Positions 41,604-58,348 of a stretch of DNA of 61,548 nucleotides are shown here, piece by piece. The position numbers and the translations under genes were made by a program. Each line of letters opens with the position of its first letter. Within the stretch, counting starts at the first letter, position 1. Location of the stretch: the NCBI GenBank assembly GCA_019694905.1, contig JAIBBB010000001.1:1-61548 (forward strand), in the 5' to 3' direction. Origin of the DNA: Cyclobacteriaceae bacterium. Lineage in GTDB: Bacteria > Bacteroidota > Bacteroidia > Cytophagales > Cyclobacteriaceae. Below the pieces are notes generated by a model. The model saw only the letters and a list, made by a program, of their open reading frames with translations. It ran no database searches and was not told the DNA's origin.

Positions 41604-43172
41604 ATGAAAATTCATAACAATACAATTCGATCAGTTGGCGGGATGCTGCTGAGTGCAGTACTGCTCTTCTCCTGTGTGGGGGACTTGAACGTCAAGCCCA
41701 ATGATCCATTCACCACCACGGCCAGTGATGTCTACACAGATACACAGTCTTACAAGCAAGGCCTCGCCAAGTTGTATGCCGCGTTTGCATTGACAGGCCA
41801 GCAAGGGCCTGCCGGCAATGGCGACGTGGCTGGTGTTGACGAAGGGTTTAGCTGCTTTGTGCGCTCACTCTGGTACATGAATGAGCTTACAACAGATGAG
41901 GCGGTATGGACTTACCCCAACGATGCCAATGGCACGATTTTCAACCTGCATTACAATACGTGGGTGCCTTCAGACAACATCCCGACTGCGTTGTTTGCCC
42001 GGATCATGAACGTGGTTGCTCTCTCGAATGAGTTTATTCGTGCAACCGCCGGCAAGACAGATGCTGATTTGGTCAAGTTCAATGCAGAGGCACGCTTCCT
42101 GCGCGCGCTGGCATACTACCATGGCATTGACCTGTTTGGCAAGATGCCATTTGTCACTGAGGCAGACCTCCCCGGCGCTTACTTCCCTCCGGTGAAGACC
42201 CGCGCCGAGTTGTTCACTTATGTAGAGTCTGAATTGAAAGACATCAAGCCCAAAATGGGCGCGCCCCGTTTTGAGTACGGTCGCGCTGACCAGGCTGCCT
42301 GTGCCATGCTGCTCGCCAAACTCTATCTCAACGCTGAGGTATATATCAACACAGATAAATATGGTGATGCTATTACACAGTTGAATGAAGTGATTGGTGA
42401 CGGCTATACGCTCTCGCCTGTGTATGCAAATCTGTTCCGCGCAGACAATGACAAGAACAATACAGAAATCATCTTCTCGCAGAACTACGATGGCAACCGC
42501 TCTCAGGCCTACGACATTGTTCAGGTAATGGTAAAGGGCAATGCAGGTGGTGGTGACGGTGGCTGGTCTGGTTTGCGCGCCACTTCAGCATTTGTAAACA
42601 AATTCAGTTCGTTGACCGAAGCCCGCGCAATATTTAACAAGGAAGACAAGGGTCAGTCGAAGGAAATCGATGCCGTGAACGTGAGCACCCAGGGTTATGG
42701 TGTGTGGAAATTCCGCGACATCACATCCAATGGTTCTCCCAACCCTTCCGGTAACACCACATTCCCGGATACTGATTTTCCGATGTTCCGGCTGGCAGAC
42801 GCATACCTGATGTATGCTGAGGCTACCCTCCGCGGCGGTGCAGGTGGTGACCGCACCCAGGCTCTCAACTATGTCAACGCGATCCGCACACGCTCTGGTG
42901 ACGTCACCGCGGGGAATGCCCCTGGTGCAATTACCGATGCAGAACTGACATTAGACTTTATTCTCGATGAACGCGCCCGTGAGCTGTATTGGGAAGGACA
43001 TCGCCGTCCTGACCTGATCCGCTTTGGTAAATTCACAGGATCCTCCTATCTCTGGCCCTGGAAAGGCGGTGTGAAGAGTGGAACGAGCATCGAAGACAAA
43101 CGCGCCATTTTCCCGATCCCGGCCGCGGATATTTCCAACAACCCCAACCTTAAACAAAATGAAGGTTACTAA
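41604..43172 (+). CDS. susD: SusD/RagB family lipoprotein
   Basis: Lipobox LFSC; AEARFLRA, FRLADAYLMYAEA, ERARELYWEGHRR.DLIRFG and NPNLKQNEGY. Confidence 0.95.
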   Translation: MKIHNNTIRSVGGMLLSAVLLFSCVGDLNVKPNDPFTTTASDVYTDTQSYKQGLAKLYAAFALTGQQGPAGNGDVAGVDEGFSCFVRSLWYMNELTTDEAVWTYPNDANGTIFNLHYNTWVPSDNIPTALFARIMNVVALSNEFIRATAGKTDADLVKFNAEARFLRALAYYHGIDLFGKMPFVTEADLPGAYFPPVKTRAELFTYVESELKDIKPKMGAPRFEYGRADQAACAMLLAKLYLNAEVYINTDKYGDAITQLNEVIGDGYTLSPVYANLFRADNDKNNTEIIFSQNYDGNRSQAYDIVQVMVKGNAGGGDGGWSGLRATSAFVNKFSSLTEARAIFNKEDKGQSKEIDAVNVSTQGYGVWKFRDITSNGSPNPSGNTTFPDTDFPMFRLADAYLMYAEATLRGGAGGDRTQALNYVNAIRTRSGDVTAGNAPGAITDAELTLDFILDERARELYWEGHRRPDLIRFGKFTGSSYLWPWKGGVKSGTSIEDKRAIFPIPAADISNNPNLKQNEGY

Positions 43173-43194
43173 GCCAATAAAATTGAGAACGACT

Positions 43195-44019
43195 ATGAAA
43201 CACACAAGAATCATAATCCTCTTCGCGCTTTCGCTGGCAGGGTTCCTCATGACTTCCTGCGATAAGGTAGAGGACAAAGTTACCCTTACCGGCAGCACGC
43301 CGCCGCAATTGACCGTTTCGTCTTCGAGCGACCTTGTCCTGCAAAAGGCCAGGGAGAACTACAGCTCACTGCAGTTCAGCTGGACCAATCCGAACTACAC
43401 ATACTCGAATGGTGTCAACACACAGGATGTCAATTACCTCCTGCAAATTGACACCACAGGATCCAATTTCTCCAACCCCAAGTCGGTGAACCTTGGATTC
43501 GTAAAAGAGTTGTCCACGGCGTTTACCGTAAAAGAGCTCAATACGGCACTTTCCGGGATGGAGTTGAAAGACTTTGTTTCGCATGCGTTTGAGTTCCGGA
43601 TCAAGGCCACGCTGTTCGGCGGCAGCGCACCCGTTTACTCCAATGTGGTAAAGATCAACATTACCACGTACCTGGATGTAGTGTATCCCGTGCCTGATAA
43701 GTTATACATCACCGGTGCAGCTACTCCTGGTAACTGGATGGGCGGCGGCGATGCTGAATTGGTTGCACAGCGATTCAATAAGGTGAACGCATACACTTTT
43801 GTTATAGAGAGCCTCAACATCAACGCAAGCTCTGGCTATTTGTTTGTGCCTGTGTACGGTGACTGGTCGCACAAATATGGTTTTACGGGAAGTGCACAAG
43901 GCAATAACCCTGCCGGCGATACCTTCAAACCAGAAGGCAATGACTTCGTATCACCCGCAACAGCAAAAGCCTATAAGATCACAGTCAATTTTAAGACAGG
44001 TAAATTTTCATTTGAATAA
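43195..44019 (+). CDS. SusE-domain surface lipoprotein
   Basis: Lipobox MTSC; FSWT.P.Y and Y.LQID..G.NF SusE N-domain; LYITGAATPGNW carbohydrate-binding module. Confidence 0.85.
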   Translation: MKHTRIIILFALSLAGFLMTSCDKVEDKVTLTGSTPPQLTVSSSSDLVLQKARENYSSLQFSWTNPNYTYSNGVNTQDVNYLLQIDTTGSNFSNPKSVNLGFVKELSTAFTVKELNTALSGMELKDFVSHAFEFRIKATLFGGSAPVYSNVVKINITTYLDVVYPVPDKLYITGAATPGNWMGGGDAELVAQRFNKVNAYTFVIESLNINASSGYLFVPVYGDWSHKYGFTGSAQGNNPAGDTFKPEGNDFVSPATAKAYKITVNFKTGKFSFE

Positions 44020-44029
44020 TTAGAAGAAT

Positions 44030-45721
44030 ATGAAGAGTTCATGGAGATATTATTGGGTTGCCGCGATAGTCGCGGTTGCCATTTCCTGTACCACCACTGT
44101 TGATCCGACGCCGAAGTTTACGCAGAGCACTGAGACCTTTGCTGCTACGCCTACGACTACAACAGTTGCTATTACAGCAGCAGACTCATTGTCCGAAGCC
44201 ATCAAATTCAATTGGAACGACCCCAAGTTTACGACGGGAATTGAGCACACGAAGTTTGTTGTGATGGTGGGCGCTGTTGGAAGCAATTTTGCCACATTCT
44301 ACCACAAGGACTTCACGGGTGTGCTGACAGGTGCACTGCTGGGTAAGGAGATCAACGCCGCCGCCCTGAAACTGGGGGCTACCATCGGCCAGTCTTTCAG
44401 CGTGGAAGCCAAAGTGGTGGCTTCACAAGCCAACGGCAATGAGTCTAAGATTTCTGCTGTGGCAGCAATCACAGTAACTCCATACGGCGACCTTACGCTG
44501 ACCCCCTCAGCTACTGCTGTAACTGCAACTGTGGCCACCGCGGCTGAGAAGGGACTTGACCTTAACTGGTCTGCTGCCTTTGTTGGGTACAAGGGAGTTA
44601 AAAAGTATCAGCTCCAGTATGCCAAGGGCGGAACGGATTTTGCAACACCAACTTCTGTTGACATGTCCTCGTTTTCCACCACATTCACCAAGTTTCAGTT
44701 GAACAAACTGGCTGTGGCGGTAGGTGTTGGTGCAGGCACCACCGGCGATGTGGATTTCCGCATCAAGGCCACCAACGAGCAGGACGCAGTATTGTACTCC
44801 AATGTTTCCACTGTAGCAATTACTACGTATGTGGCTTATAACAGCATTGGTATCATTGGCGATGCAACTGCCGGTGGTTGGGGTACTGACACAGATCTGC
44901 GCCGTCCTGATCCGAATGGAGCACCCACTGATTGGACGGTAACCTTGTTCCTCACTGGCGGTAAGTCTGTGAAGTTCCGTGCGGATGACGATTGGGCTAA
45001 TAACTGGGGAGATTCTGCATTCCCCCATGGTTTCGGCACATCAAACGGCCCGAACATTCCTGTAAGTGCTGATGGATACTACAAAGTCGACTTCAATGTT
45101 GGTACGGGTGAGTATACACTCACTGCGGTTGCCTCAACAACTTACACGAATATCAGTATGATCGGCGACTTCGTGGGTTGGAGCTCAGATATCGACCTGA
45201 CCCAGGACGGAAGTGATCCTCATGTTTGGACAGGCACCTATACGTTTGGCAGTGATGCTCAAATGAAGTTTCGTGCGAATCATGATTGGGGCACCAACTG
45301 GGGTTCAAAAACATTCCCGAGTGGTTACGGTGTAGGGAATGGCGACAATATCCTGGTGACTGCCGGTACCTACTTCGTCTACTTCCATGACGTAACCGGT
45401 GAGTTCTTCCTTGCGCCGACAGCCAACAGTACCCCGTATAACAGTATTGGAGTCATCGGCGACTTCACGGGTTGGAGTTCAGATGCCAATCTGATCAAGA
45501 GCCCGACTAACCCCTACCGGTGGTCTGGCACGGTGAATCTGTCGGCAACAGGCGGTGCCAAATTCCGCGCCAACGCCGATTGGGGCACTAACTGGGGTTC
45601 CAACAGCTTCCCGAATGGCAAGGGTGTGCAGAACGGCGACAATCTGCCGATTACCACAACCGGCGTGTATGTTGTTACTTTCCACTCCGGCACCGGCGAG
45701 TACACCTTTACGAAGAACTAA
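44030..45721 (+). CDS. SusE/SusF-like surface glycan-binding lipoprotein
   Basis: Lipobox AISC; two SusE-like domains; three IG..GD..GW...KFRA..DW..NWG repeats. Confidence 0.88.
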   Translation: MKSSWRYYWVAAIVAVAISCTTTVDPTPKFTQSTETFAATPTTTTVAITAADSLSEAIKFNWNDPKFTTGIEHTKFVVMVGAVGSNFATFYHKDFTGVLTGALLGKEINAAALKLGATIGQSFSVEAKVVASQANGNESKISAVAAITVTPYGDLTLTPSATAVTATVATAAEKGLDLNWSAAFVGYKGVKKYQLQYAKGGTDFATPTSVDMSSFSTTFTKFQLNKLAVAVGVGAGTTGDVDFRIKATNEQDAVLYSNVSTVAITTYVAYNSIGIIGDATAGGWGTDTDLRRPDPNGAPTDWTVTLFLTGGKSVKFRADDDWANNWGDSAFPHGFGTSNGPNIPVSADGYYKVDFNVGTGEYTLTAVASTTYTNISMIGDFVGWSSDIDLTQDGSDPHVWTGTYTFGSDAQMKFRANHDWGTNWGSKTFPSGYGVGNGDNILVTAGTYFVYFHDVTGEFFLAPTANSTPYNSIGVIGDFTGWSSDANLIKSPTNPYRWSGTVNLSATGGAKFRANADWGTNWGSNSFPNGKGVQNGDNLPITTTGVYVVTFHSGTGEYTFTKN

Positions 45722-45745
45722 TAGAATCATATGATATAGCAATGG

Positions 45746-45781
45746 ATCAGAGGCCTCTTAACAGGGGCCTCTGATTTTTTT
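45746..45781 (+). terminator. Rho-independent terminator
   Basis: ATCAGAGGCCTCT-TAAC-AGGGGCCTCTGAT followed by a T run. Confidence 0.8.
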
Positions 45782-45784
45782 AGT

Positions 45785-48700
45785 ATGAAAAACCTAAGCG
45801 CACTCGCAGCCAGGGTTGTCTTTCTGGCAATTCCAATATCCGCGATACTATCCGGTTGTACCGAACGTAAGTCTGCCCTCTACACCAGCGTCCCTGAATC
45901 CAAATCAGGTATTGACTTCAGAAATGAGGTCACCGAAAATGAGGAGATCAATATTCTCACGTATGAGTATGCTTATAATGGCGGAGGAGTTGCGGCTGCT
46001 GATTTTAACAATGACGGACTTTCCGATCTCTACTTTACAGGCAACATGGTTGGCAATCGCCTGTATCTCAACAAAGGCAATCTTCAATTTGCAGACGCTA
46101 CGGCCGATGCCGGCGTTGCGGGCAGGTCGATGTGGAAGACGGGAGTAAGTGTAGTAGATATCAATGCTGACGGATGGCTTGATTTGTATGTTTGCTACTC
46201 AGGGTTTGACAAGCCTGGGGCTCTTTCCAACGAACTTTATGTCAATCAGGGGTGCAAGCCCGGTGGCATACCACTGTTCAAGGAATCAGCAAAAGCATAT
46301 GGCCTTGATGCACCCGGTACTTTCTCTACTCAATCCGCCTTCTTTGACTACGACCGCGACGGCGACCTGGACATGTTTCTGATCAATCATGGCAATCATT
46401 TCTACGCACCCTTCTTTAATACAACACAGCTCAGAAATACGAGGCATCCCCAGTTTGGAAACAAACTGTACAGGAATGACACTGCTGATTCAGGGATGTA
46501 TTTTCATGATGTCAGTGAGCAGGCGGGCATCAAGGGGGGTGGCCTCAATTTCAGCCTTGGCCTGTCTGTGGCAGACTTTAACAACGATGGCTGGCCGGAT
46601 GTCTTCGTGACCAGCGACTATGAAGAGCAGGATTTTCTGTATCTCAACAAGGGCGATGGCACTTTCGATGAAAGAGCCAAAAGCGCCATGGGCCACTTCT
46701 CGAGAAATGGCATGGGCTGCGACGCGGCCGATATCAACCACGACGGATGGCTGGACCTGATTGAACTTGACATGTTGCCAGAAGACAACTACCGGCAAAA
46801 GTTGCTGAAAGGCCCCGATGACCACAATCGCTACCACCTGATGATCGATAGCGGCTACCACTACCAGCAAATGCGCAATACACTTCAATTGCATGCCGGC
46901 GTCAAAGGGGGTGTGCCCATGTTCGCAGAAATCGGCCAAATGGCCAAAGTCTCAACGACTGACTGGAGTTGGGCCCCTTTGTTCCTGGATGCAGACAACG
47001 ACGGATATGAGGATCTGTTCATCACGAATGGTTATCTCCGTGATTTCACGTCGATGGATTTTCTTAAGTATCAGGTACCTCGTGCACGGCTGGAAGCGCA
47101 AAGCAAGGGGAAGGACCTGAAAATGTTTGACCTGGTGCGTCAAATGACTTCTACAAGAACGAGCGACTATATCTTCCGAAACAATGGCGATCTGACTTTT
47201 GCAGACAAAACACAGGAGTGGGGTATTTCCAAACCCAATCTCTCATTTGGCGCTGCCTACGCTGATCTGGACAACGATGGCGACCTCGAGATCATCACCA
47301 ACAACACCAATGAGCCGGCAACAGTCTGGGAGAACCATGCCAATGAGCTTGTTCAGGGCAACTTCCTTCGGGTGGTTTTGAAAGGGAACGCACCCAATTC
47401 ATTCGGCTATGGAGCACGCGTATCACTCTGGTCGGAGTCTGGAGACACACTGCTGCAGGTAAAAGAAATGATGCCCTCAAGGGGCTATCAGTCAAGTGTG
47501 GAGCCTGTTATTCATTTTGGTTTGGGAATTCGCAAGCGGATAGCCAGGGTTCAGGTGCAGTGGCCTGACGGCACGTCATCATCTGTGTCGGGTATTGATG
47601 CAAATCAGACTGTACGCATTAATCAGGCCGGTGCGGCAGGATTGGCACCAGTCGGCGAGAAGTCTCTCGACTACCTGAAGGAAATAGCTTTGACGGGTGA
47701 TTGGAAAATGCACGAGGAGAATCCCTTTGTGGATTTCGACAGCGAGCCACTGATTCCCTATGCGTATTCGCGCTCCGGCCCGGTGCTTGCAGCGGCTGAC
47801 GTGAATGGCGACAAGAATGAGGACTTTTTTGTGGGTGGTTCGGCGGCAGCGCCTTCGCATCTGCTTCTGAATTGGGGTGGTGGGAGGTTTGAAGATTCTG
47901 ATCAGCAGTCATGGTCTAAGCAAATTCCGATGGAAGTATCAGACGCCATGTTCTTTGATGTAGATTCGGATGGTGACCAGGACCTTTTTGTTGTGGGTGG
48001 CGGAAGTGAATTTCCGGAGGGATCCGATAGTTATACGGATCGCCTGTATCTGAACAATGGAAAGGGAAAATTCACGGAAGCATCTCCCGGTTCTATCATT
48101 CTTGATCACGTGAGCGGAAGCTGTGTTGCAGGAGCGGACTTTGACAAGGACGGGGACATTGATCTGTTTGTTGGTGGCGGTGTAAAGCCCGGTAGTTTTC
48201 CTCAGAGCAGCCCGAGTGCGCTGTTGCGCAATGACACTGACAACCACGGTGCCGTGCACTTCACTCTTGTCACTAAGGAGCTTGGCGGTGACCAGCTCCG
48301 GGAAGCGGGACTTACTACCGATGCGGTGTGGACAGACCTGGACGGGAATGGTTGGCAGGATCTGGTTATTGCAGGGCATTGGATGCCTGTCACGGTCTAC
48401 CTCAACAATCAAGGCAGGTTGACGAAATCAACGGAGCCTTCTCTTGCTGAATTGTCTGGCCTTTGGAATACAATCTTTGCAGGGGACCTCGACAGTGACG
48501 GAGACGATGACCTTATTGCTGGCAATGCGGGCTTGAATACTTCCTGGACTGCGTCCGCGGCTGAGCCAGTGGAAATGTACTATGCGGACTTCAATCGCGA
48601 TGGAAAGATGGATCCGGTCATCTGCAGCTATGTACAAGGCACGAGCTATCCCGTTGCTACAAGAGATGAGTTACTGGGTCAGTTGACGCACTTGCGTAAG

Positions 48701-49180
48701 AAATTCACAGACTATGCATCCTATGCCAAAGCCACTTTGAGCGATGTGCTGACCGGGGAAGAATTAGCACTGGCGCAGAAAAGGGTAGTCAATACATTGC
48801 AGTCAGTCTATCTTGAGAACAATGGCCGAGGTGGGTTCAATGTTGTCAGTTTGCCCAGTCGTGCGCAATTCTCCTGGACCAGTAGTCTGTTGAGTCTGGA
48901 TATTGATGATGACAAGGATATGGATTTGTTGGTAGGTGGCAATTTCAATCCATGGAGAACAGCGTATGGTCCCTCAGATGCAAATTTTGGAGTATTGTTG
49001 AAAGGCAACGGCAAGGGTGGTTGGGAAGCCGAGAGTCAGGCGCATACTTCTTATTTTGGTGAAGGCGATGTGCGCTCGATGATCAAAATAAGCGATGGTT
49101 CCGGAAGAAGCTATGTGGTTGTTGGCAGGAATGCGCAGGCAGTCCGGGTTTTTGAGTTGCGGCACGGAATGGGGAAGTGA
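45785..49180 (+). CDS. VCBS/FG-GAP repeat + ASPIC/UnbV (CRTAC1-like) lipoprotein
   Basis: Lipobox LSGC; YNGGGVA..DFNNDG; many D.D.DG..D repeats; RGYQSS..IHFGLG..WPDG ASPIC motif. Confidence 0.9.
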   Translation: MKNLSALAARVVFLAIPISAILSGCTERKSALYTSVPESKSGIDFRNEVTENEEINILTYEYAYNGGGVAAADFNNDGLSDLYFTGNMVGNRLYLNKGNLQFADATADAGVAGRSMWKTGVSVVDINADGWLDLYVCYSGFDKPGALSNELYVNQGCKPGGIPLFKESAKAYGLDAPGTFSTQSAFFDYDRDGDLDMFLINHGNHFYAPFFNTTQLRNTRHPQFGNKLYRNDTADSGMYFHDVSEQAGIKGGGLNFSLGLSVADFNNDGWPDVFVTSDYEEQDFLYLNKGDGTFDERAKSAMGHFSRNGMGCDAADINHDGWLDLIELDMLPEDNYRQKLLKGPDDHNRYHLMIDSGYHYQQMRNTLQLHAGVKGGVPMFAEIGQMAKVSTTDWSWAPLFLDADNDGYEDLFITNGYLRDFTSMDFLKYQVPRARLEAQSKGKDLKMFDLVRQMTSTRTSDYIFRNNGDLTFADKTQEWGISKPNLSFGAAYADLDNDGDLEIITNNTNEPATVWENHANELVQGNFLRVVLKGNAPNSFGYGARVSLWSESGDTLLQVKEMMPSRGYQSSVEPVIHFGLGIRKRIARVQVQWPDGTSSSVSGIDANQTVRINQAGAAGLAPVGEKSLDYLKEIALTGDWKMHEENPFVDFDSEPLIPYAYSRSGPVLAAADVNGDKNEDFFVGGSAAAPSHLLLNWGGGRFEDSDQQSWSKQIPMEVSDAMFFDVDSDGDQDLFVVGGGSEFPEGSDSYTDRLYLNNGKGKFTEASPGSIILDHVSGSCVAGADFDKDGDIDLFVGGGVKPGSFPQSSPSALLRNDTDNHGAVHFTLVTKELGGDQLREAGLTTDAVWTDLDGNGWQDLVIAGHWMPVTVYLNNQGRLTKSTEPSLAELSGLWNTIFAGDLDSDGDDDLIAGNAGLNTSWTASAAEPVEMYYADFNRDGKMDPVICSYVQGTSYPVATRDELLGQLTHLRKKFTDYASYAKATLSDVLTGEELALAQKRVVNTLQSVYLENNGRGGFNVVSLPSRAQFSWTSSLLSLDIDDDKDMDLLVGGNFNPWRTAYGPSDANFGVLLKGNGKGGWEAESQAHTSYFGEGDVRSMIKISDGSGRSYVVVGRNAQAVRVFELRHGMGK

Positions 49181-49221
49181 TAGCTGGTAGATGTAATGAT
49201 TTTTGAATCAATAATTTCTAT

Positions 49222-50262
49222 ATGAAATCTTGCACAGGGGTTTGGGTAGTAGTGTGTTTGGCAATGGGCCTTCTTTCGGGCTGCGGCTCCAAGGATCAAC
49301 CCGGGCCGGTGGATACAGGTTTTTTTGCCAAGGGCGCTGATGTTGGTTGGCTTACGGAGATGGAAGCCTCCGGAATCAAGTTTCGCAACAGTGCAGGGGT
49401 TGAGCAGGACTGCATGCAGATACTCAAGGACAAGGGAATCAATTCCATTCGGGTAAGGGCCTGGGTAAATCCGGCCGACGGTTGGAATAATACAGCGGAT
49501 GTGGTTGCCAAGGCGAAACGCGCCCAGGCCTTAGGACTCAAGTTGATGGTTGATTTTCACTATGCCGATAGTTGGGCGGATCCGGGTAAGCAGCCCAAGC
49601 CGGCGGCGTGGGCTTCCATGAACTTCAATGACATGAAGACGGCCCTGTATAACTATACGAAGGGGGTGATGGACACGTTGAAGTTGAACAAAATCACACC
49701 TGATTGGGTGCAGATCGGCAATGAAACCAACGATGGCATGTTGTGGGAAGATGGCCGTGCGTCGAAGTCCATGGCCAATTTTGCTCTGCTGGTTCGCGCT
49801 GGTTATGATGCAGTCAAGGCAGTGAGCCCTGCTTCAAAAGTGATTGTGCATTTGTCCAACGGGTACGACAATCAGATGTTCCGGTGGATGTTTGATGGCC
49901 TGCGTGAGCAGGGTGTTATCTGGGATATTATAGGGATGTCACTGTACCCCTCATATGCACCTGCCGGTGTCAGTGGCTGGAAGACTGTCAATGACCAGTG
50001 CCTTGCAAATATGAATGACATGTTGACCCGCTATGGTACGCCCGTCATGGTGGTAGAAGTAGGGTTTCCGGTCAATGATCCTGTTACGGCAAAGGCATTT
50101 CTGGCTGATATCATCGCCAAGACGCGGTCAGTGAGCGGCGGCAACGGGCAGGGAGTGTTTTATTGGGAGCCGGAATGTCATAACCACTGGAAGGGTTATG
50201 AACTTGGTGCCTTTGACGACACGGGCAAGCCCACAGCGGCGATGGATGCGTTTCTCGAGTAG
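49222..50262 (+). CDS. GH53 endo-beta-1,4-galactanase lipoprotein
   Basis: KGADVGWL, DFHYADSWADPGKQ.KP.AW, VQIGNE and FYWEP motifs. Confidence 0.93.
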   Translation: MKSCTGVWVVVCLAMGLLSGCGSKDQPGPVDTGFFAKGADVGWLTEMEASGIKFRNSAGVEQDCMQILKDKGINSIRVRAWVNPADGWNNTADVVAKAKRAQALGLKLMVDFHYADSWADPGKQPKPAAWASMNFNDMKTALYNYTKGVMDTLKLNKITPDWVQIGNETNDGMLWEDGRASKSMANFALLVRAGYDAVKAVSPASKVIVHLSNGYDNQMFRWMFDGLREQGVIWDIIGMSLYPSYAPAGVSGWKTVNDQCLANMNDMLTRYGTPVMVVEVGFPVNDPVTAKAFLADIIAKTRSVSGGNGQGVFYWEPECHNHWKGYELGAFDDTGKPTAAMDAFLE

Positions 50263-50389
50263 CCTTTCCGGCGGACTTCATGCTGTAGGAGCAGATTGGC
50301 ATTGAGGAAACGGGGTTTTTCCCGCTTTCCTGCCATTTGGAAATTGGTAAATTGGGTTGTTTGCTTACCTAAACCCGATTCCTGACTGT

Positions 50390-51229
50390 ATGCACGTCAG
50401 TCACTGTTTTGCGTTTTTGCAGGAGCCAGTTGCCGGAATGTCAGTATCGACGCAAAGCAATAATCAACTTTTGTATATACTCTCATTGGGCATCCTGCCT
50501 GTACTGGTTGCGTTTTCATTCTTCTTCTTTGTGTACTATCGTTCAAGACGGGAAGCGGCTGTTCGTCAACAGGAAACCGCTTTGCGGTTGAGTGTGGCGG
50601 AGGGCGAACTCACGGCGCTACGCGCCCAGATCAATCCCCATTTTATCTTCAACTGCATGAATTCAATTCATGATTTCATTCAGTCGAGCAACGCACAGGC
50701 CAGTGGAGAATACCTGATCAGATTTTCACAAGTAATACGGCATGTGCTGGAGAGCTCCGCCAAACGGATGGTTCCTCTTGAAGATGAGATTCTGGCAAAT
50801 CGCAACTATCTGGAACTGGAGTTGCTGCGCATGGACTATACATTTGCTTACGAGTTTGTTGTGGCTGACAACATTCACCCGAGCCATGTCCAGATAGCAC
50901 CCATGATCCTTCAGCCTTTTATTGAAAATGCGATTTGGCACGGGTTGAGTCATCGTAAGGAGGGTGGAAGGCTGGAAGTGCGTTTTGAAAGAAAGGATGG
51001 CAACCACCTTGCCTGTACAGTGTGGGACAATGGTCCTGACGCTGCGGTGGAACGATCGGCTCATGATCTAGTTCATCATGTCAAGAAGACGAGCATGGGA
51101 TTGCCCTTGATACAGGAGCGCCTGAAGAACATGAATACGCTATACGGCACCAAGGCCGATTTTCGGATGGAGACGGATCCCTCCAGGGCCGGAAAGAGTG
51201 TTGTCATCACCATCCCTTTTGAGGAATAG
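50390..51229 (+). CDS. LytS-type histidine kinase with a single TM segment and no sensor domain
   Basis: ALRAQINPHFIFNCMNSI H-box, QPFIENAIWHG N-box, DNG and SMGL. Confidence 0.9.
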   Translation: MHVSHCFAFLQEPVAGMSVSTQSNNQLLYILSLGILPVLVAFSFFFFVYYRSRREAAVRQQETALRLSVAEGELTALRAQINPHFIFNCMNSIHDFIQSSNAQASGEYLIRFSQVIRHVLESSAKRMVPLEDEILANRNYLELELLRMDYTFAYEFVVADNIHPSHVQIAPMILQPFIENAIWHGLSHRKEGGRLEVRFERKDGNHLACTVWDNGPDAAVERSAHDLVHHVKKTSMGLPLIQERLKNMNTLYGTKADFRMETDPSRAGKSVVITIPFEE

Positions 51230-51230
51230 T

Positions 51231-51983
51231 ATGCCCTATTCAGTGATCGTGGTGGAGGATGAATTGCCCCAGCAAAGAGCTCTTGGACGTTTGCTGAATC
51301 ATGAATCTGACCTTGCTATCATTGCCACTGCCCGCTGTTGCGCTGAAGCCGTCACATTGCTGGAAGCTCACCGCCCTGACCTGGTATTTATGGACATTAT
51401 GCTGGGCGGGGAGAATACTTTCGATATGCTCTCCAACCTGAATACAATCCCATTTCGGATCATTTTCACAACAGCACATAACGAATTCGCGGTTCGGGCA
51501 TTCCGTTTTTCAGCAATCGATTTTTTGTTAAAGCCAATTTCCACTGAGGATTTCCGTGCCGCTGTCATGAAATTCAGGCATCAGGTGGATGCCCACAATT
51601 TTGGCTCCAGGCTCCACAATCTGCTGACAAATCTCAGGAAGCCTGCGGGAAGCCACCGGATCGCATTGCCCACCCTGAAGGGCTTTCTATTTCTGGAGGT
51701 CAGTGAGTTGATCCGATGTGAAGCAGACAACACCTATACCACGTTCTTCACGACAGGAGGGCAGCGAATCATTGTTTCCAGAACCATCAAGGAGGTGGAA
51801 CAATGTCTGAATGAAACTGACTATCGCTTTTGCAGAGTCCATCATTCTGCTCTCATCAATCTGGACTACGTGGTTGAATACACGAAGGGTGATGGCGGCT
51901 GGGTAAAGATGATGGATGGCGCGGAGGTGGAGGTGTCGCGCAGACGCAAAAACTATTTCCTCAGTATGGTCATGAGTCTTTGA
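51231..51983 (+). CDS. LytTR-family response regulator
   Basis: VEDE, DLVFMDI, IFTTAH and DFLLKP receiver motifs; FCRVHHSALINL and VSRRRK LytTR motifs. Confidence 0.93.
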   Translation: MPYSVIVVEDELPQQRALGRLLNHESDLAIIATARCCAEAVTLLEAHRPDLVFMDIMLGGENTFDMLSNLNTIPFRIIFTTAHNEFAVRAFRFSAIDFLLKPISTEDFRAAVMKFRHQVDAHNFGSRLHNLLTNLRKPAGSHRIALPTLKGFLFLEVSELIRCEADNTYTTFFTTGGQRIIVSRTIKEVEQCLNETDYRFCRVHHSALINLDYVVEYTKGDGGWVKMMDGAEVEVSRRRKNYFLSMVMSL

Positions 51984-52023
51984 CCAGTTACTGTTGCCAA
52001 CTGCCACTTACTAGCTCATTCAT
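51983..52023 (+). promoter_or_regulatory. Candidate LytTR direct-repeat binding site
   Basis: ACCAGTTACT at 51983 and GCCACTTACT at 52003, plus a weaker GCTCATTCAT at 52014, upstream of 52207. Confidence 0.4.
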
Positions 52024-52206
52024 GCAAGATACTGGTTTGGGTAATAATACGAGGCTGAGTCACTTAGTTTCGTAAGCAGTTCGCCGGTCTGCAGCAAGGT
52101 GAACAGGTAACTTCACTACATACACTGTTCAATACAATCCATATTGTTCAGTGCTGTAAGGTTAAGTTACCTCTTAATGATTATCCATTTAACCAACGAT
52201 CAGATT

Positions 52207-52980
52207 ATGAAAATTGCATTCAGATCAGGCTTTGCGCTGCTGCTGCTTGCCATGGCTGCCTGGACATCGCCAGAGGCTGACGGTGCCGGCGCTGCATCCG
52301 TTAAGGCTTTTATGAAAAACAAGACCTTGTTTAACCTTGCGCGAAATGGACAGGGTGGACTTTTTCCGGCGTCATCCTTTCAGTTGAGGCCCGGCAACGA
52401 AGGTGTGCTGCTGTGGTTCTGCTATGATTCGCTCTATCAACGTCTCTTTGTTGCGCTTGAGCAAATCAGAAAGTACAACCCCCAGTCACCCCCTGCATAC
52501 CCGGTAAGTGATTCGCTGCTTTTGCCAGATATGTTTACTTATGTCCAGGAAGATGACCCGATGGCCGACTCGACTGCGCTGCGGCATTTCCGGGCAGCAG
52601 TTGTGCCTGCTCAAGGCGCACAACCATTTGTCAGAATAAGTCGGGAAACCGCCGAGGGATTTATCAGGCAATTTGAGCGTCAGCCGGGGATCAGGACTTA
52701 CTGCGAATTGCCCTTTTCCTGTTTTGGGGAGGGTACCTGGCCCAATTCTTCGGGAGTGTCCCAGCAGTACCTTACACGCTTTCTCTCAACACTCTCCGTG
52801 AGGAATGGCGTTCCGCATGGATACGTCAGATTCTATTTCACATTCAAGGATATGAAAACAAATAGAATACGCCTGACACTTTTGGCGACAAATCACGACG
52901 GGTACCGCCAAAATGTGGTGAAGGGTGTCAACAATCTGGAGCAAAGTTGGCCTCCACCGCCCCCCTTGGGCGGCAATTGA
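52207..52980 (+). CDS. Exported hypothetical protein with a C-terminal EQSWPPPPP tail
   Basis: Signal peptide MKIAFRSGFALLLLAMAAW; YVRFYF...RIRLTLLA..DG; Pro-rich C-terminus. Confidence 0.75.
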   Translation: MKIAFRSGFALLLLAMAAWTSPEADGAGAASVKAFMKNKTLFNLARNGQGGLFPASSFQLRPGNEGVLLWFCYDSLYQRLFVALEQIRKYNPQSPPAYPVSDSLLLPDMFTYVQEDDPMADSTALRHFRAAVVPAQGAQPFVRISRETAEGFIRQFERQPGIRTYCELPFSCFGEGTWPNSSGVSQQYLTRFLSTLSVRNGVPHGYVRFYFTFKDMKTNRIRLTLLATNHDGYRQNVVKGVNNLEQSWPPPPPLGGN

Positions 52981-52992
52981 GTTCGGCAAGGG

Positions 52993-53019
52993 AGGGCCGG
53001 TGAATCCGGCCCTTATTTT
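52993..53019 (+). terminator. Hairpin/terminator between the secreted protein and the 7TM gene
   Basis: AGGGCCGG-TGAAT-CCGGCCCT followed by TATTTT. Confidence 0.55.
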
Positions 53020-53043
53020 ATATTTTAGAATAACCAGACGATT

Positions 53044-53667
53044 GTGTCAGCCACCCTATTCTATTACTTCCAGATTACTTCAACCCTTTCGGCTGTATTG
53101 CCGCTGGCTTTAGGAATGTGGGTTCAGCGGCGTGAAGTGAGATTTCGGTGGATGCTTTCATTTCTTGCCCTGGGCCTTTTCACTGATCTGTTGGGCTGGG
53201 CTTTCTATCTTTCAAATTTCTCCAGGGGCAACCTTGTCATCAGAGACATTTATAGTTTACTTGAGTTCTTCTTTGTCTGCGGGATGCTGCACGCTGTTGT
53301 GCAAAGCAAAGTCGTCCGAAGGATTTTGAAATACTGGATCGTGGTGCTGATTCCCTTGTGGGTGGTTGGCGTATGGTGGATCGAGTGGAATGTAGTTGCA
53401 CGCACTACTTCACAGGTTGTGATTGCCTTTGCTTCCGGTTTCGCTATTCTTGAAATGGTTGAAAAGTCCGACAATCCATATGGCAACTGGCTCTTCTGGG
53501 TTCTTCTGGGATTCTTCTTTTACTTTTTCTGCACATTCTTTTTTATGAGCCTCATCGCCACGCAAATGGGTATTCAGATCTGGTATCTGCATAACTTTGT
53601 CAACATCACAACCAATCTGTTCTACTTCTACGGATTCTGGCGCACCAGAAACAACCAAAGCCTTTGA
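53044..53667 (+). CDS. Hypothetical 7TM membrane protein
   Basis: Seven hydrophobic segments by eye; YSLLEF and NPY..WLFW..GFFFYF motifs. Confidence 0.8.
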   Translation: MSATLFYYFQITSTLSAVLPLALGMWVQRREVRFRWMLSFLALGLFTDLLGWAFYLSNFSRGNLVIRDIYSLLEFFFVCGMLHAVVQSKVVRRILKYWIVVLIPLWVVGVWWIEWNVVARTTSQVVIAFASGFAILEMVEKSDNPYGNWLFWVLLGFFFYFFCTFFFMSLIATQMGIQIWYLHNFVNITTNLFYFYGFWRTRNNQSL

Positions 53668-53697: not shown

Positions 53698-54186
53698 TTA
53701 GTCCAATAAGGATTCAGGGCTTCGCAGGAGTGAAGCATCTTTTTCTCCCAGCTTCAGATCTTCGGCAATGGATGCGTTCGTGGGACGCAAGAACAGCATC
53801 ACGAGAACAACCATGGCAGTGAAGGCAAGAAACAGCAGGTCAAAAGTGAGGAACGCGCAAACTGCGGCAAGCAGGGCAGGGACTTCCATGATGCTGCTTC
53901 TGACGAGCAAGGCAAACTGAAGCCGGATGAGTTTGCCTCGCAGGCTGAGCCCTTTGTCCAGATTGGCCAGCAATTGCCGGTAGACGAGCCAACCACCCGC
54001 TACTCCAACGGGAGTGAGTACATAGAGAACATACCTGAATACCTCCGCGTCCAGATCCTCGTTGGGGACATTGGCGCCTGAGATTTTGAGAAAAATGACT
54101 ACGCCGCTGAATGTGACAAGCACCATTACAATGGCGAAGTAGATCATGTTGAGTGCTGTGAGGGTCGCTTTTACGGTGGTTGCCAT
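53698..54186 (-). CDS. Hypothetical membrane protein (about 4 TM)
   Basis: Hydrophobic segments; EVPALL and RPT..IAEDL. Confidence 0.7.
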   Translation of the reverse strand: MATTVKATLTALNMIYFAIVMVLVTFSGVVIFLKISGANVPNEDLDAEVFRYVLYVLTPVGVAGGWLVYRQLLANLDKGLSLRGKLIRLQFALLVRSSIMEVPALLAAVCAFLTFDLLFLAFTAMVVLVMLFLRPTNASIAEDLKLGEKDASLLRSPESLLD

Positions 54187-54209
54187 AGCGGTAGAGTATG
54201 ATTGACTGA

Positions 54210-54692
54210 TCAGTGATTCTTTAGTAAAAGGGGAAGACCAGCATGACGGGCCACGGCTTCGGCCGCAAACCTTCCTTCCTCGCTGAAGGTCCAGACAAAG
54301 AGATGTTGTATAGGGTGTTCAGTGCGCATGGAATCAATAGCATCAAGGCATAGCCGCAATGCGATCCCCTGGCGTCGGTGCTCAGCAAGCACCATTGCAG
54401 AGCAGAGGTAGAGTGCTGAATAACTTGTTTGAAGGGGTGTAAGTTCCATTAGTGCGCGCTCTGAAATCTTTCCGTTCAGGAAGTCATTCATCAGTGCCTC
54501 AGTCGTTGGGAATAGGAGGACCCAGGCAACCGGCCCTTCTTCTGTTGCGTGTTCACACACTGCGGCAGGGTGAATGGCGCGCAGATGATCGAGTACGTCC
54601 TCATTTACATCAATCTGGTCCGGATCTGTTCGTGAGGCAAACACCTCATCAGCCAGCTGTATCATCCGTTCAAAGTTGGGACCGTATTCCAT
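54210..54692 (-). CDS. GNAT-family acetyltransferase-like protein
   Basis: AMVLAEHRRQGIA acetyl-CoA binding motif A. The start was chosen to avoid overlap with the upstream gene. Confidence 0.75.
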   Translation of the reverse strand: MEYGPNFERMIQLADEVFASRTDPDQIDVNEDVLDHLRAIHPAAVCEHATEEGPVAWVLLFPTTEALMNDFLNGKISERALMELTPLQTSYSALYLCSAMVLAEHRRQGIALRLCLDAIDSMRTEHPIQHLFVWTFSEEGRFAAEAVARHAGLPLLLKNH

Positions 54693-54708
54693 GACAAAGG
54701 CAGAGTTG

Positions 54709-56115
54709 CTACGGATCTGTTCGATCAAATTCTTCCCGAACTCCATAGAAGACTCTATAGTAGCGATCTTTCTCACCGACTTTTACGCGTTCGATTTGAA
54801 AGTCGATCCGGTCGATGGCAAAGAGCTTGTCTGCTGATGCAGGATAGAGTTTCCTGCTTACCCAGGGATTGATTACCTGTTGGATATGGTCCGGGCCCGT
54901 TTTCAGCTTAAATTTCGTGCTGCGTAGTTTGTAGGAACCGCTGAAGTGCTTCAATGAAGTGGAGTCATAGGGAATTACCTTCAGTTGCGCCGGCATCTGA
55001 ACCTGACGGCCGTGGAGAATGTGTGACAGGCCCAGCAGAATGCCGCTTGAAACAGATTGATTATTGGACAAAATGATGATGGTCAGATCATCGTCGGTAT
55101 AGCGAGCGAGCTGTGTCGAATAACCTGGCCAGCCGCCTGAATGCTGAATGAGTGAGCCAAAGGTATCCTTGCTTACCATGACGCCGTATCCGTAGTACAT
55201 GTTGCTTGCAGTGTCGGCCAGTGCATGTGGATATTGGAGTTGACTGTTGATCGTGCCGGTATCGAGCAGGGTGGCATTTCTCCAGGCGCGGTCCCATTTG
55301 AGAAGGTCACCCGCGGTGGAGTTCACTGTACCGTCGCCAACGATGCCGTCCATATAGTACACATAGCTGAAACTCTTAAGCGAATCAGGAAGCATGAAGC
55401 GGGAGAGACTGTCGGACCAGACAAAGCCGTAGGCGTAGTTGGGAATGACTTCACCTCTTCGACGTGAGTTGTAAACCCGTGTATGTGTCATGCGCAACGG
55501 CTGAAAGATGCGCTCAAGCAAGAAGTCGTTGTAAGACTTGCCAGACACCTTTTCGACTATGCTCGCGAGGAGTGCGAACCCTGTGTTGCTGTATTGCCAC
55601 CGGGTCCCGGGTTTGAAGTAGATGGCCGGTTTCTGACTGGCAAGCAGCGCGACCATGTCTTTGTTGAATGCAATTTTCTTGTGATCCCAATGATAGGGGA
55701 TCAGTTCTTCGTAATCGGGCAATCCGGAAGTGTGGGTGAGCAGGTGATGAATAGTAATGCCATGGTAAGGAAGTTCAGGGAAGAAATACCGCAGCGAGTC
55801 ACCAACGCTCAGCTTTCCATCTTTCTGCAGCAGCAGAATGGCTGTGGCAGTAAACTGCTTGCTGACAGAGGCAAGTTCGAATACACTGCTGTCGTTGAGA
55901 GGCGCCCGGGTATCAAAATTGGCGTAGCCAAATGAATGTTGGTAGATTATTTTCCCTTTCTCTGCTACGAGAACGTTGCCATTGAACTGGTAGAATTCTT
56001 CTTCGGCGTGCAAAAACTGATCAACGAGTTGGATGCGCGGGTCGGAATTGCTGCAAGACAGCAGAACGATGGCAAACAGTGAAAGGACGATGGGTTTCAG
56101 GATGGAGTAATTCAT
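54709..56115 (-). CDS. Serine hydrolase (AmpC/beta-lactamase-related) lipoprotein
   Basis: Lipobox LLSC; SVSK (SxxK), LLTHTSG, YSN and HSGG motifs. Confidence 0.9.
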   Translation of the reverse strand: MNYSILKPIVLSLFAIVLLSCSNSDPRIQLVDQFLHAEEEFYQFNGNVLVAEKGKIIYQHSFGYANFDTRAPLNDSSVFELASVSKQFTATAILLLQKDGKLSVGDSLRYFFPELPYHGITIHHLLTHTSGLPDYEELIPYHWDHKKIAFNKDMVALLASQKPAIYFKPGTRWQYSNTGFALLASIVEKVSGKSYNDFLLERIFQPLRMTHTRVYNSRRRGEVIPNYAYGFVWSDSLSRFMLPDSLKSFSYVYYMDGIVGDGTVNSTAGDLLKWDRAWRNATLLDTGTINSQLQYPHALADTASNMYYGYGVMVSKDTFGSLIQHSGGWPGYSTQLARYTDDDLTIIILSNNQSVSSGILLGLSHILHGRQVQMPAQLKVIPYDSTSLKHFSGSYKLRSTKFKLKTGPDHIQQVINPWVSRKLYPASADKLFAIDRIDFQIERVKVGEKDRYYRVFYGVREEFDRTDP

Positions 56116-56174
56116 ACAACAAGTTACTCCAAATCAGGACCGAAAAAAATGGGGAATGGTAATCTGCCTGTTGA

Positions 56175-57059
56175 CTACTCGTCGCCTATCCGCACGGAGG
56201 TCATTGTCAGAGCGCCACCAACGGCCTTGTCATTGAAAATGCGTGCGGATTCAGATTTGTGCTGAAGTGCAAGTATGTACAGCAAGGGAAGATAGTGTTC
56301 GGGCGTGGGGATGGACAAGTCAAATTCCCGGCCCTGGCCGCGGAAGTTTACCAGGGCCTTGTGGTCACCATCCAGGATGAACTTCTTCATTTTTTCATTC
56401 GCCGTAAGGGCCCAGTCGTAACCATAGTTATCGGCGTTGAGTTTGTCCCATGCGACCATGCGAAGGTTGTGTACGAGGTTGCCGCTTCCCACAATCAATA
56501 TGCCTTTGTTGCGCAGTGCGGAGAGTTCTTGTGCAAGCTCATAATGGTATTGTGGGGTTTGGCGGTAGTCCAGACTCAGTTGCACCACGGGGACGTTTGC
56601 GTTGGGATAGAGGTGTTTGATGACACTCCACGCGCCGTGATCAAGCCCCCACTGCTGATCCATTCCGACCTGCGTTTTATGAATCGTTTGTTTGGTTTCT
56701 TGAGCCAGGGCCGGACTTCCCGGGGCGGGGTACTGCACGTCATAGAGCGCACGGGGGAAACCGCCGAAATCATGGATGGTTTTCGGGTGGTCCATGGCCG
56801 TGACAAATGTGCCAGGAGTTTCCCAGTGTGCGGACACACACAGGATGGCTTTGGGAGTTGGAAGCGTTTTTGATATGGTGCGAAATCCCTGAACAAATGA
56901 GTTTTCCTCAATGGCGTTCATCGGACTTCCATGTCCGAGAAAAAGCGCTGGCATGGTTTCGGTGGGGCCGAAGCCATCAGTGAGTGTTGTCAGTGAAGAT
57001 ATTTCCATGGTGGTGAAGGGTAAGACTGCGAGTGATTGTAGAAAGTGACTTCGGTTCAT
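56175..57059 (-). CDS. ygiD: 4,5-DOPA extradiol dioxygenase
   Basis: FLGHGSPMN, SAHW, TIHDFGGFP, GLDHGAW, GSGNLVHNL and PTPEHYLPL motifs. Confidence 0.9.
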   Translation of the reverse strand: MNRSHFLQSLAVLPFTTMEISSLTTLTDGFGPTETMPALFLGHGSPMNAIEENSFVQGFRTISKTLPTPKAILCVSAHWETPGTFVTAMDHPKTIHDFGGFPRALYDVQYPAPGSPALAQETKQTIHKTQVGMDQQWGLDHGAWSVIKHLYPNANVPVVQLSLDYRQTPQYHYELAQELSALRNKGILIVGSGNLVHNLRMVAWDKLNADNYGYDWALTANEKMKKFILDGDHKALVNFRGQGREFDLSIPTPEHYLPLLYILALQHKSESARIFNDKAVGGALTMTSVRIGDE

Positions 57060-57075
57060 GTAAGCGTCTGAGGAA

Positions 57076-58125
57076 TCAAAGGACAGGGGTGGTTTTCTTA
57101 ATTGCCTTTCGCACAGCGAGAGCTACCTGTGTGACAAACAGCTCCATCGACTTAATGGTACGGGCGCGGGGCAAATAGCCTACACTCATTTGTGCGAGGA
57201 AGCGGGTATGGCCAAACAGTTCATGTTCAAATAGAATCTTGTCTATGACTTGTTGTACGCTGCCTACGACCAATGCTCCTTTCGGTGACCGGCCGGCCTC
57301 GAATTGTTCCCTCGACATGGGAGGCCATCCTCGCTCCCGGCCTATGCGGGTCATGGTGGCTGCGTAGGTTGGGAAGTACTCATCGCTCGCCTGTTGGGAG
57401 GTGTCGGCAACATAAACATGTGAATTGATCCCCAGCCTGATGGACTCATCCTGCAGCCCCATTTGACGACAGGATTGCTTGTACAGGTTGATGAAGGGAA
57501 CGAATTTTTCGGGCATCCCACCGATGATTGCCAGCGCCATCGGCAGGTTGAGTTGTGCGGCGCGCACCGCGGACTCCGGTGTGCCTCCTACTGCGAGCCA
57601 CACAGGCAACTGTTCCTGCAGTGGACGTGGATAGACACCTGCGTTATTCAGTGCAGGGCGAAGCTGGCCACGCCACGAGATGGTTTCGCCCTGATTGATT
57701 TTAAGCAGGAGATCCAGCTTTTCGGCAAACAGTTCGTCATAGTCTTTGAGATCATATCCAAAGAGTGGAAAGGACTCGATGAATGAACCTCTGCCGGCCA
57801 TGATTTCAGCACGGCCACCCGAAAGGTGATCGACGGTGGCAAACTGCTGAAAGACGCGAACGGGATCATCAGAACTGAGAACGGATACCGCACTTGAAAG
57901 GCGAATCTTCCGGGTGACCATTGCAGCGGCGCCAAGAACTACGGCAGGTGCTGAAACGGAGTAGTCAGGCCGGTGGTGTTCGCCAAGGCCAAAGACGTCC
58001 AGGCCGAGTTCATCGGCAAGCCGGATTTCTTCTATTAGGTCCCGGAATCGCTGTTGAGTATGTATCGCGCCGCCAGCCTTGTGGTCGGGCTGTACGTCTG
58101 CAAAGGTGTATATACCAAGTTCCAT
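57076..58125 (-). CDS. LLM-class flavin-dependent oxidoreductase
   Basis: [26 protein letters not shown] and [13 protein letters not shown] motifs. Confidence 0.92.
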
Positions 58126-58348
58126 ATTTGTTGAATGCCTGGCATTGAATTCAGGCGCAATTATGAACAATAATATTACGGCCATCGTGCCATTATTCCT
58201 TAAACAAAGTGATTGATGGCTGATTTCTTAACCCAGATTAAGACAGTTCGGACTGATTCTCTATAGTTGTATATTAACTCTGGGTAAAATTCCTGTTGTA
58301 CCTGAACCATCGCCTCAGACCGTCGTTTAGAGTCTGTAGCAAATTTCT

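Follow-up and report, generated by a model that had tools for sequence, protein, structure and literature searches.

A four-gene signalling cassette with a sensorless kinase, a proline-tailed partner and a separate GPCR-shaped membrane protein, widespread in Bacteroidota

The Agr and Com systems combine a LytTR regulator and its direct repeats with a membrane receptor, a small protein as partner and variable input genes. A similar set of components was found at positions 50390–53667 (forward strand) of contig JAIBBB010000001.1 of a Cyclobacteriaceae bacterium (GenBank assembly GCA_019694905.1), whose first 61,548 nucleotides were analysed and are referred to below as the window. The locus is a four-gene signalling cassette, widespread in Bacteroidota, composed of a histidine kinase without a sensor, a regulator, a proline-tailed partner and a separate membrane protein shaped like a G-protein-coupled receptor (GPCR). 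In contrast to Agr and Com, receptor and kinase were separate genes in all loci and never fused, the partner was a folded one- or two-domain protein instead of a short propeptide, and its tail was conserved rather than strain-specific. No AgrB-like, ABC or other processing or export gene consistently accompanied it, and no peptide-receptor covariation was detected among 27 related loci.

The SaePQRS system of Staphylococcus aureus, as described in PMC5083920, also joins a lipoprotein, a multi-pass membrane protein, a kinase without a ligand-binding domain and a regulator, with an autoinduced promoter for the accessory genes. SaeQ has four helices and SaeS two, whereas the cassette contains a seven-helix GPCR-like fold and a single-helix kinase of one of three classes; it further differs in the conserved proline tail and in a partner that often lacks a leader. 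No Pfam or NCBIfam match to SaeP or SaeQ was obtained among the cassette proteins. The LytTR Regulatory Systems (LRS) HdrRM and BrsRM share with the cassette a LytTR regulator, a membrane protein, direct repeats and autoregulation (PMC6193735). Such systems pair the regulator with a membrane inhibitor and have no cognate kinase. The cassette regulator, by contrast, contains a receiver domain whose Asp is invariant and is served by a cognate kinase; the family of the seven-transmembrane (7TM) protein in the cassette mostly accompanies LuxR-type regulators.

Fused 7TM inputs such as HisKA_7TM (PF16927), listed as a sensor domain in PMC5847659, may have a similar predicted seven-helix fold and feed kinases, GGDEF, HD and LuxR-type outputs; the cassette 7TM protein differs in standing alone, the kinase helix being encoded separately and a partner gene being dedicated to it. 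Adhesion GPCRs and microbial rhodopsins have the same seven-helix topology, with the N-terminus outside and the C-terminus inside (N-out/C-in), but identity to them is 5–14%, the retinal lysine and a G protein are missing and the output of the cassette is a histidine kinase, so that the idea of a tethered agonist is used here as an analogy only. In the RcsF-IgaA-RcsCD system a lipoprotein acts on a multi-pass inner-membrane protein controlling a phosphorelay; the general layout is alike, and no sequence or fold link to the cassette was found. The cassette works like an accessory-controlled two-component system, yet it is placed outside Agr, Sae, LRS and rhodopsins, with a smaller chance that it represents a categorically new receptor type. 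A description of it was not found in the open-access literature, and neither Pfam nor NCBIfam contains a family for the tail protein or the 7TM protein.

The elements listed in a preliminary description of this DNA, namely a single-helix LytS-type kinase, a LytTR regulator, direct repeats, a gene with a WPPPPP tail, a hairpin and a 7TM protein, were all recovered. The stretch recurs nearly unchanged in contigs from four other public runs, and the locus is thus not an assembly artefact; strain variation across the four DNA runs was almost nil. That description had also pointed to similar neighbourhoods of PP-tail, 7TM and kinase genes in Bacteroidota, and in the gene-neighbourhood analysis both genes of unknown family accompanied sensorless single-helix kinases phylum-wide. 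Neither a lack of co-occurrence with kinases nor an unconserved tail was observed.

The close subfamily comprised 35 distinct loci (9 + 26 after dropping 3 duplicates), and 30 of them had the order kinase, LytTR regulator, tail gene and 7TM gene. The five exceptions were four loci cut by contig ends and L155, without the kinase pair. A wide set of 60 regions was taken around 7TM matches, with one place in genome G308 left out. The tail gene was present in 59 of these regions (53 by a profile built from the same loci and 6 more by the tail motif), and a single-helix kinase in 53 (42 HisKA_3, 10 HisKA with PAS and 1 LytS), its gene usually overlapping the 7TM stop codon. The kinases were collected by a script, which found 54, and by manual reading, which added L089 (frame over-long) and removed L085 (a distant multi-helix kinase); their classes were Pfam-confirmed for 8/53 and assigned by similarity for the rest. 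The feature constant over the kinase classes was the single N-terminal helix. At L076:4011–4505 (PAS by Pfam) and L085:4175–4804, the 7TM gene is followed by a gene for a single-helix protein with a short cytoplasmic part and no kinase domain.

A reciprocal, non-circular set was started from the tail domain, the profile of which matched 53/301 genomes; the best 40 new regions were taken and about a dozen weaker places were left. The 7TM gene lay directly downstream of the tail gene in 39/40 of them and a kinase was present in 36/40, three of the four misses being contig ends. Tallies of genomes by tail profile are lower bounds, because the wide tail-domain profile missed the tail gene of this very genome. 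Locus L226 carries two 7TM genes, each with its own kinase. At L024:5922–8859, L025:6539–8697, L065 and L196 a single tail gene is followed by two or three divergent 7TM genes in tandem, which suggests several receptors or hetero-oligomers per kinase; at L024 a possible remnant of a tail gene lies inside one 7TM gene. No conserved peptidase, exporter or processing gene was detected across the neighbourhoods examined. The arrangement at the window, a CPPxC-homologous tail gene directly before a 7TM gene of the same family and with a single-helix kinase, is that of an uncatalogued CPPxC-7TM-kinase cassette.

The 7TM profile matched at least 44/401 genomes of the phylum, a lower bound with seven candidates scored per genome, and 5,211 cluster representatives (50% identity) at E ≤ 0.001. 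The named relatives belong to Bacteroidota, mostly to Cyclobacteriaceae and Fulvivirgaceae, and include the cultured carriers Mariniradius saccharolyticus, Aquiflexum lacus and Cognataquiflexum spp. Single-protein word-index searches matched only the query proteins, and the relatives came from whole-genome searches. No relative was found in viral contigs. The cassette was not found in the five congeners searched (G027, G146, G570, G867 and G893), and therefore it looks patchy even within the genus.

The 7TM protein (P0005; 207 aa, 53044–53667, +) had no Pfam or NCBIfam match, and its AlphaFold model contains seven helices with a predicted local distance difference test (pLDDT) score of 95, in agreement with the stand-alone 7TM protein first described. 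Lys and Arg were frequent in loops 1, 3 and 5 and at the C-terminus (1.6–3.0 vs 0.4–0.8 elsewhere), from which, by the positive-inside rule for the orientation of membrane proteins, an N-out/C-in topology of GPCR/rhodopsin type is predicted. The best PDB matches were GPCRs and rhodopsins (Z 10.6–13.5, root-mean-square deviation ~4 Å). The helix 7 lysine that binds retinal in microbial rhodopsins is missing, no Lys occurring in residues 175–204 or in the consensus. The nearest predicted structures (TM-score 0.66–0.75) included 7TM domains fused to kinases, GGDEF, HD and LuxR-type domains. With the HisKA_7TM profile 1/148 members scored (E 5e-4), and the TM-score to predicted members of PF16927 was ~0.66, under the bar of the service. 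The 150 best profile matches measured 130–274 aa and the 7TM protein is consequently regarded as stand-alone; longer, fused forms were absent among 7,993 candidates, which is weak evidence. The best-conserved motif family-wide (F151, W152, G156 and Y160) has its start where helix 6 meets the cytoplasm, the conserved polar residues D48, N63, Y70, E74, N184 and N187 lie in the middle and outer half according to the positive-inside count, and no set of catalytic residues is conserved family-wide.

The tail protein (P0001; 257 aa, 52207–52980, +) carries a probable Sec-type leader, two tandem alpha/beta domains of the CPPxC family and a conserved tail, and ends in NNLEQSWPPPPPLGGN. It had no Pfam or NCBIfam match. 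The codons of the tail LEQSWPPPPP (residues 244–253) occupy positions 52936–52965 (+), and this tail aligns with the PCPPxC tail of the wider family. The C-terminal half aligned with the single-domain CPPxC family at 97–98% probability, with SWPPP opposite PCPP, and the N-terminal half at 95%, indicating a tandem duplicate of this Bacteroidota domain; the two halves gave no significant alignment against each other (probability 4%). The cysteines were lost, a Cys being present within the last 25 residues in only 1/32 orthologues. In the wider CPPxC family, the paired cysteines point to a folded loop. In the model (pLDDT 83) the protein is alpha/beta, with strand contacts at residues 243–244 and 248 and a free end. 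No clear PDB match was obtained (Foldseek E ≥ 0.04; best Z 4.7), by which a new fold is not shown, and the leads in the Atlas were all under 0.9.

Conservation of the tail, anticipated in the preliminary description, was evident: 31/32 orthologues match the motif, and the tail, which stands at the end of a variable linker, is 59% identical compared with 26% for the body. The sister loci L026 and L027 share 91% identity in the kinase, 98% in the regulator, 98% in the small gene described below, 89% in the 7TM protein and 27% in the tail protein. Their DNA is 94–95% identical, and the alignment breaks over the body of the tail gene and resumes at the tail codons. This points to bodies exchangeable at nearly the same receptor, with the caveat that a crossover of this kind would in any case have to lie within conserved DNA. 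Some tail-domain proteins without the di-proline tail (L199, L201, L212, L113 and L086) still stand before a 7TM gene and a kinase gene.

Leaders were called from hydropathy rather than by SignalP, each open frame being read upstream as far as the stop codon before it. The copy in the window has an N-terminal hydrophobic stretch (9-residue hydropathy 2.81), from which its export is predicted, and the periplasm is its likely place of action in this genome. To this extent the exported protein of the preliminary description stands; the leader itself is not conserved among orthologues, 14/32 having one (one of them doubtful), nine with a lipoprotein-type cysteine.

The regulator (51231–51983, +) was identified as a REC-LytTR response regulator by Pfam and orthologue alignment, and its D55, K101 and LytTR Arg residues are invariant in 30 orthologues. 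The direct repeats reported between the regulator and the tail gene are real, and form an array of predicted LytTR boxes (51984–52033, +; repeat census and matrix scan) starting directly after the regulator stop codon. Box 1, CCAGTTACT, at 51984 and box 2, CCACTTACT, at 52004 are identical at 8 of 9 positions with a period of 20, and a weaker third copy follows at 52025 (periods 20/21). A general repeat finder missed them. Within the 72 bases past the LytTR stop codon, 13 of 30 loci, which are kin, had pairs of 9-mers identical in at least 7/9 positions with a period of 21, and 8 of the 30 had such pairs with a period of 20, against an expected count of 1.2 for each period; other lags gave 0–4. 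With a matrix trained without the window locus, the three-box score of the window ranked 25 of 7,977,296 genome positions, at the same place as in relatives. Such repeats are absent after the 6 other LytTR genes of the genome, and the genome scan with the box matrix yielded no convincing further regulon, several higher scores being simple repeats. LytTR boxes are described as direct repeats 11–13 bp apart just upstream of the promoter (PMC6193735), and the 9-bp repeats found here have this format and spacing upstream of the putative target promoter. A sigma-70 scan, which does not cover the promoters of this phylum, stayed at chance level. Kinase and regulator lie upstream of the boxes and hence outside their predicted control; judging from this arrangement, the likely targets of the regulator are the tail gene and the 7TM gene and not the kinase pair.

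An extra gene for a beta-rich protein of 83–107 residues was found between the boxes and the tail gene in 25/30 close loci (e.g. L028:5527–5778). Its product has neither a leader nor a Pfam match and, with a mean identity of 43%, is as conserved as the kinase. The gene is absent from positions 51984–52206 of the window and was not found in this genome. A terminator-like hairpin is present between the tail gene and the 7TM gene (52992–53014, +; z −2.43, 5/200 shuffles as stable), as previously noticed; being strong in only 2/30 close loci, it is a local feature and was rejected as a conserved control element.

The kinase gene (50390–51229, +; alternative starts TTG at 50357 and ATG at 50438) encodes a LytS-type (PF06580) histidine kinase, as judged from Pfam, hydropathy and orthologues. 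PF06580 and HATPase_c domains and one hydrophobic segment (approximately residues 28–50), preceded by an unconserved outer tail of about 25 residues, were detected and no sensor or input domain was present, confirming the single-helix kinase of the earlier account. Adjoining a REC-LytTR regulator with intact phospho-residues, it forms with it a LytS/LytTR two-component pair. Each of the other 12 LytS-type kinases found in the genome is either multi-helical or equipped with a large periplasmic part. Among LytS-subfamily orthologues the transmembrane helix, at 57% identity, nearly equals the DHp domain (60%) and exceeds the ATPase domain (40%); the outer tail reaches 13%. The H and N boxes are intact in 30/30 orthologues. 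The G1 box is DNGPD (residues 213–217; window 51026–51040) and lacks the second Gly, which is kept in only 6/30 orthologues and in the three closest kinase paralogues of this genome; the kinases of L026–L028 have lost both glycines.

The cassette is interpreted, with a confidence that falls barely on the favourable side, as a split receptor with feedback, in which the 7TM protein is the input subunit of the kinase and the tail protein controls the 7TM protein through its conserved tail. The basis observed for it comprises the three genes travelling together phylum-wide with three kinase classes, the predicted fold, the boxes and the conservation of the tail. Every contact in this scheme, like the sign of the loop, is inferred. 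The 7TM protein would quite probably pack against the conserved kinase helix and set the activity of the kinase. It is somewhat probable that the whole folded tail protein, rather than a freed peptide, would offer its tail to the 7TM protein, the fast-changing body deciding the trigger. The phosphorylated LytTR regulator would quite probably bind the repeats and, on a narrow balance of probability, would when bound raise the tail protein and the 7TM protein, closing a positive loop.

Several results weigh against this split receptor. Eighteen of the 32 close orthologues lack a hydrophobic leader, as do 18/45 and 31/44 members of the wide sets (15 of the 18 in the 45-member set retain the cysteine pair), and on the regulator tree (29 rows, L158 left out) the leader state has switched no fewer than 3 times (5 by parsimony), on the 7TM tree (28 rows) likewise 3 times or more. 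Without an export leader many tail proteins could not reach a periplasmic pocket by Sec. After correction for the regulator, covariation with the 7TM protein was nil for the tail (partial rho 0.02) and for the kinase helix (0.00) over 27 loci; the body of the tail protein showed weak covariation (partial rho 0.20; 27 related, non-independent loci). The degenerate G1 box in 24/30 kinases means that strong autokinase activity is not assured. A widespread arrangement of helices may account for the Z values of 10–13.5, and no Foldseek match of the 7TM protein reached E ≤ 0.001. Finally, no kinase was present nearby at 4/60 7TM loci nor at L031, L214 also lacks one, and the LytS kinase of L118 has a periplasmic part of its own.

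The main rival, considered unlikely, is a damping of the SaePQ kind, in which the kinase senses alone and the induced tail protein and 7TM protein join it in a complex and switch on its phosphatase in a negative loop. It agrees with the position of kinase and regulator upstream of the boxes, so that only the tail gene and the 7TM gene would be induced, with the lipoprotein-type cysteine of nine orthologues and with the degenerate G1 box of the kinase. In S. aureus just this role belongs to a lipoprotein and a membrane protein expressed from an autoinduced promoter (PMC5083920); SaeS, however, has two helices and a linker and senses without SaePQ, whereas the kinase of the cassette has one helix and an outer tail conserved at 13%. 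Besides, the 7TM fold serves elsewhere as a fused input domain, in the common form of the cassette the 7TM gene overlaps the start of the kinase gene, and duplicated 7TM genes bring their own kinases.

In a rather improbable extension, the cassette would be a three-gene GPCR-like receptor, in use throughout Bacteroidota, with an exchangeable single-helix kinase, the tail filling the 7TM pocket as a tethered agonist in trans. It would serve as an alarm for breach of the envelope or lysis of kin, its specificity changed by swapping of the body; a partner kept in the cytoplasm or on a lipid anchor would meet the receptor only on damage of the cell or its kin.

A slim chance is given to binding of the tail protein to the 7TM protein from the cytoplasmic side, in the manner of G-protein tails, or to export or processing of the tail protein by the 7TM protein in place of sensing. 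The leaderless majority and the start of the best-conserved 7TM motif at the cytoplasmic end of helix 6 would suit this reading, but the lipoprotein-type and Sec-type leaders of 14/32 orthologues imply export, the conserved polar 7TM residues lie in the middle and outer half, and a family-wide catalytic set is lacking.

Quorum sensing similar to Agr, in which the 7TM protein would detect the cleaved and secreted tail as an autoinducer, was the view of the preliminary description and is judged improbable. A conserved tail at the end of a variable linker, low model confidence at the tail end, repeats in LytTR format, a receptor-like fold and the probable leader of the window copy speak for it. 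Against a secreted, processed peptide, most family members have no leader, the tail hardly varies and does not follow the 7TM protein, the body being the variable part, and neither a conserved cleavage or processing site before the tail in the orthologues nor a conserved peptidase or exporter in the cassette was found; moreover, the family retains a folded body of one or two domains, and strand contacts in the model involve part of the tail. A ribosome-arrest motif in the proline tail, tuning 7TM translation in cis, is very improbable, for although arrest peptides with C-terminal di-proline motifs and N-terminal localization signals are reported in PMC10987492 and the tail gene nearly always directly precedes the 7TM gene, the tail is kept in copies that follow the 7TM or kinase gene (L063, L093, L198 and L227) as well as in tail genes arranged in tandem, the hairpin between the genes is not conserved, and the cysteine pair of the wider family points to a folded loop.

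If the split receptor is correct, a large 7TM family supplies the missing input for many apparently sensorless kinases of Bacteroidota, and a GPCR-shaped protein signals by way of a kinase helix encoded apart from it, its ligand or co-receptor being a protein partner. Little is known of signalling by peptides or proteins in this phylum. The cultured carriers and the defined promoter make the cassette directly testable.

Upstream of the cassette, positions 43078–50262 of the window hold a polysaccharide locus with SusE/SusF proteins, a FG-GAP/ASPIC protein and a GH53 galactanase, which is not conserved beside the cassette in relatives. A link to this neighbouring galactan locus was rejected because the flanking genes differ among relatives. 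Downstream and convergent (53698–58185, −), genes for an unknown membrane protein, a weakly GNAT-like protein, a serine hydrolase of the beta-lactamase family, a LigB-type dioxygenase and a luciferase-like monooxygenase look ordinary.

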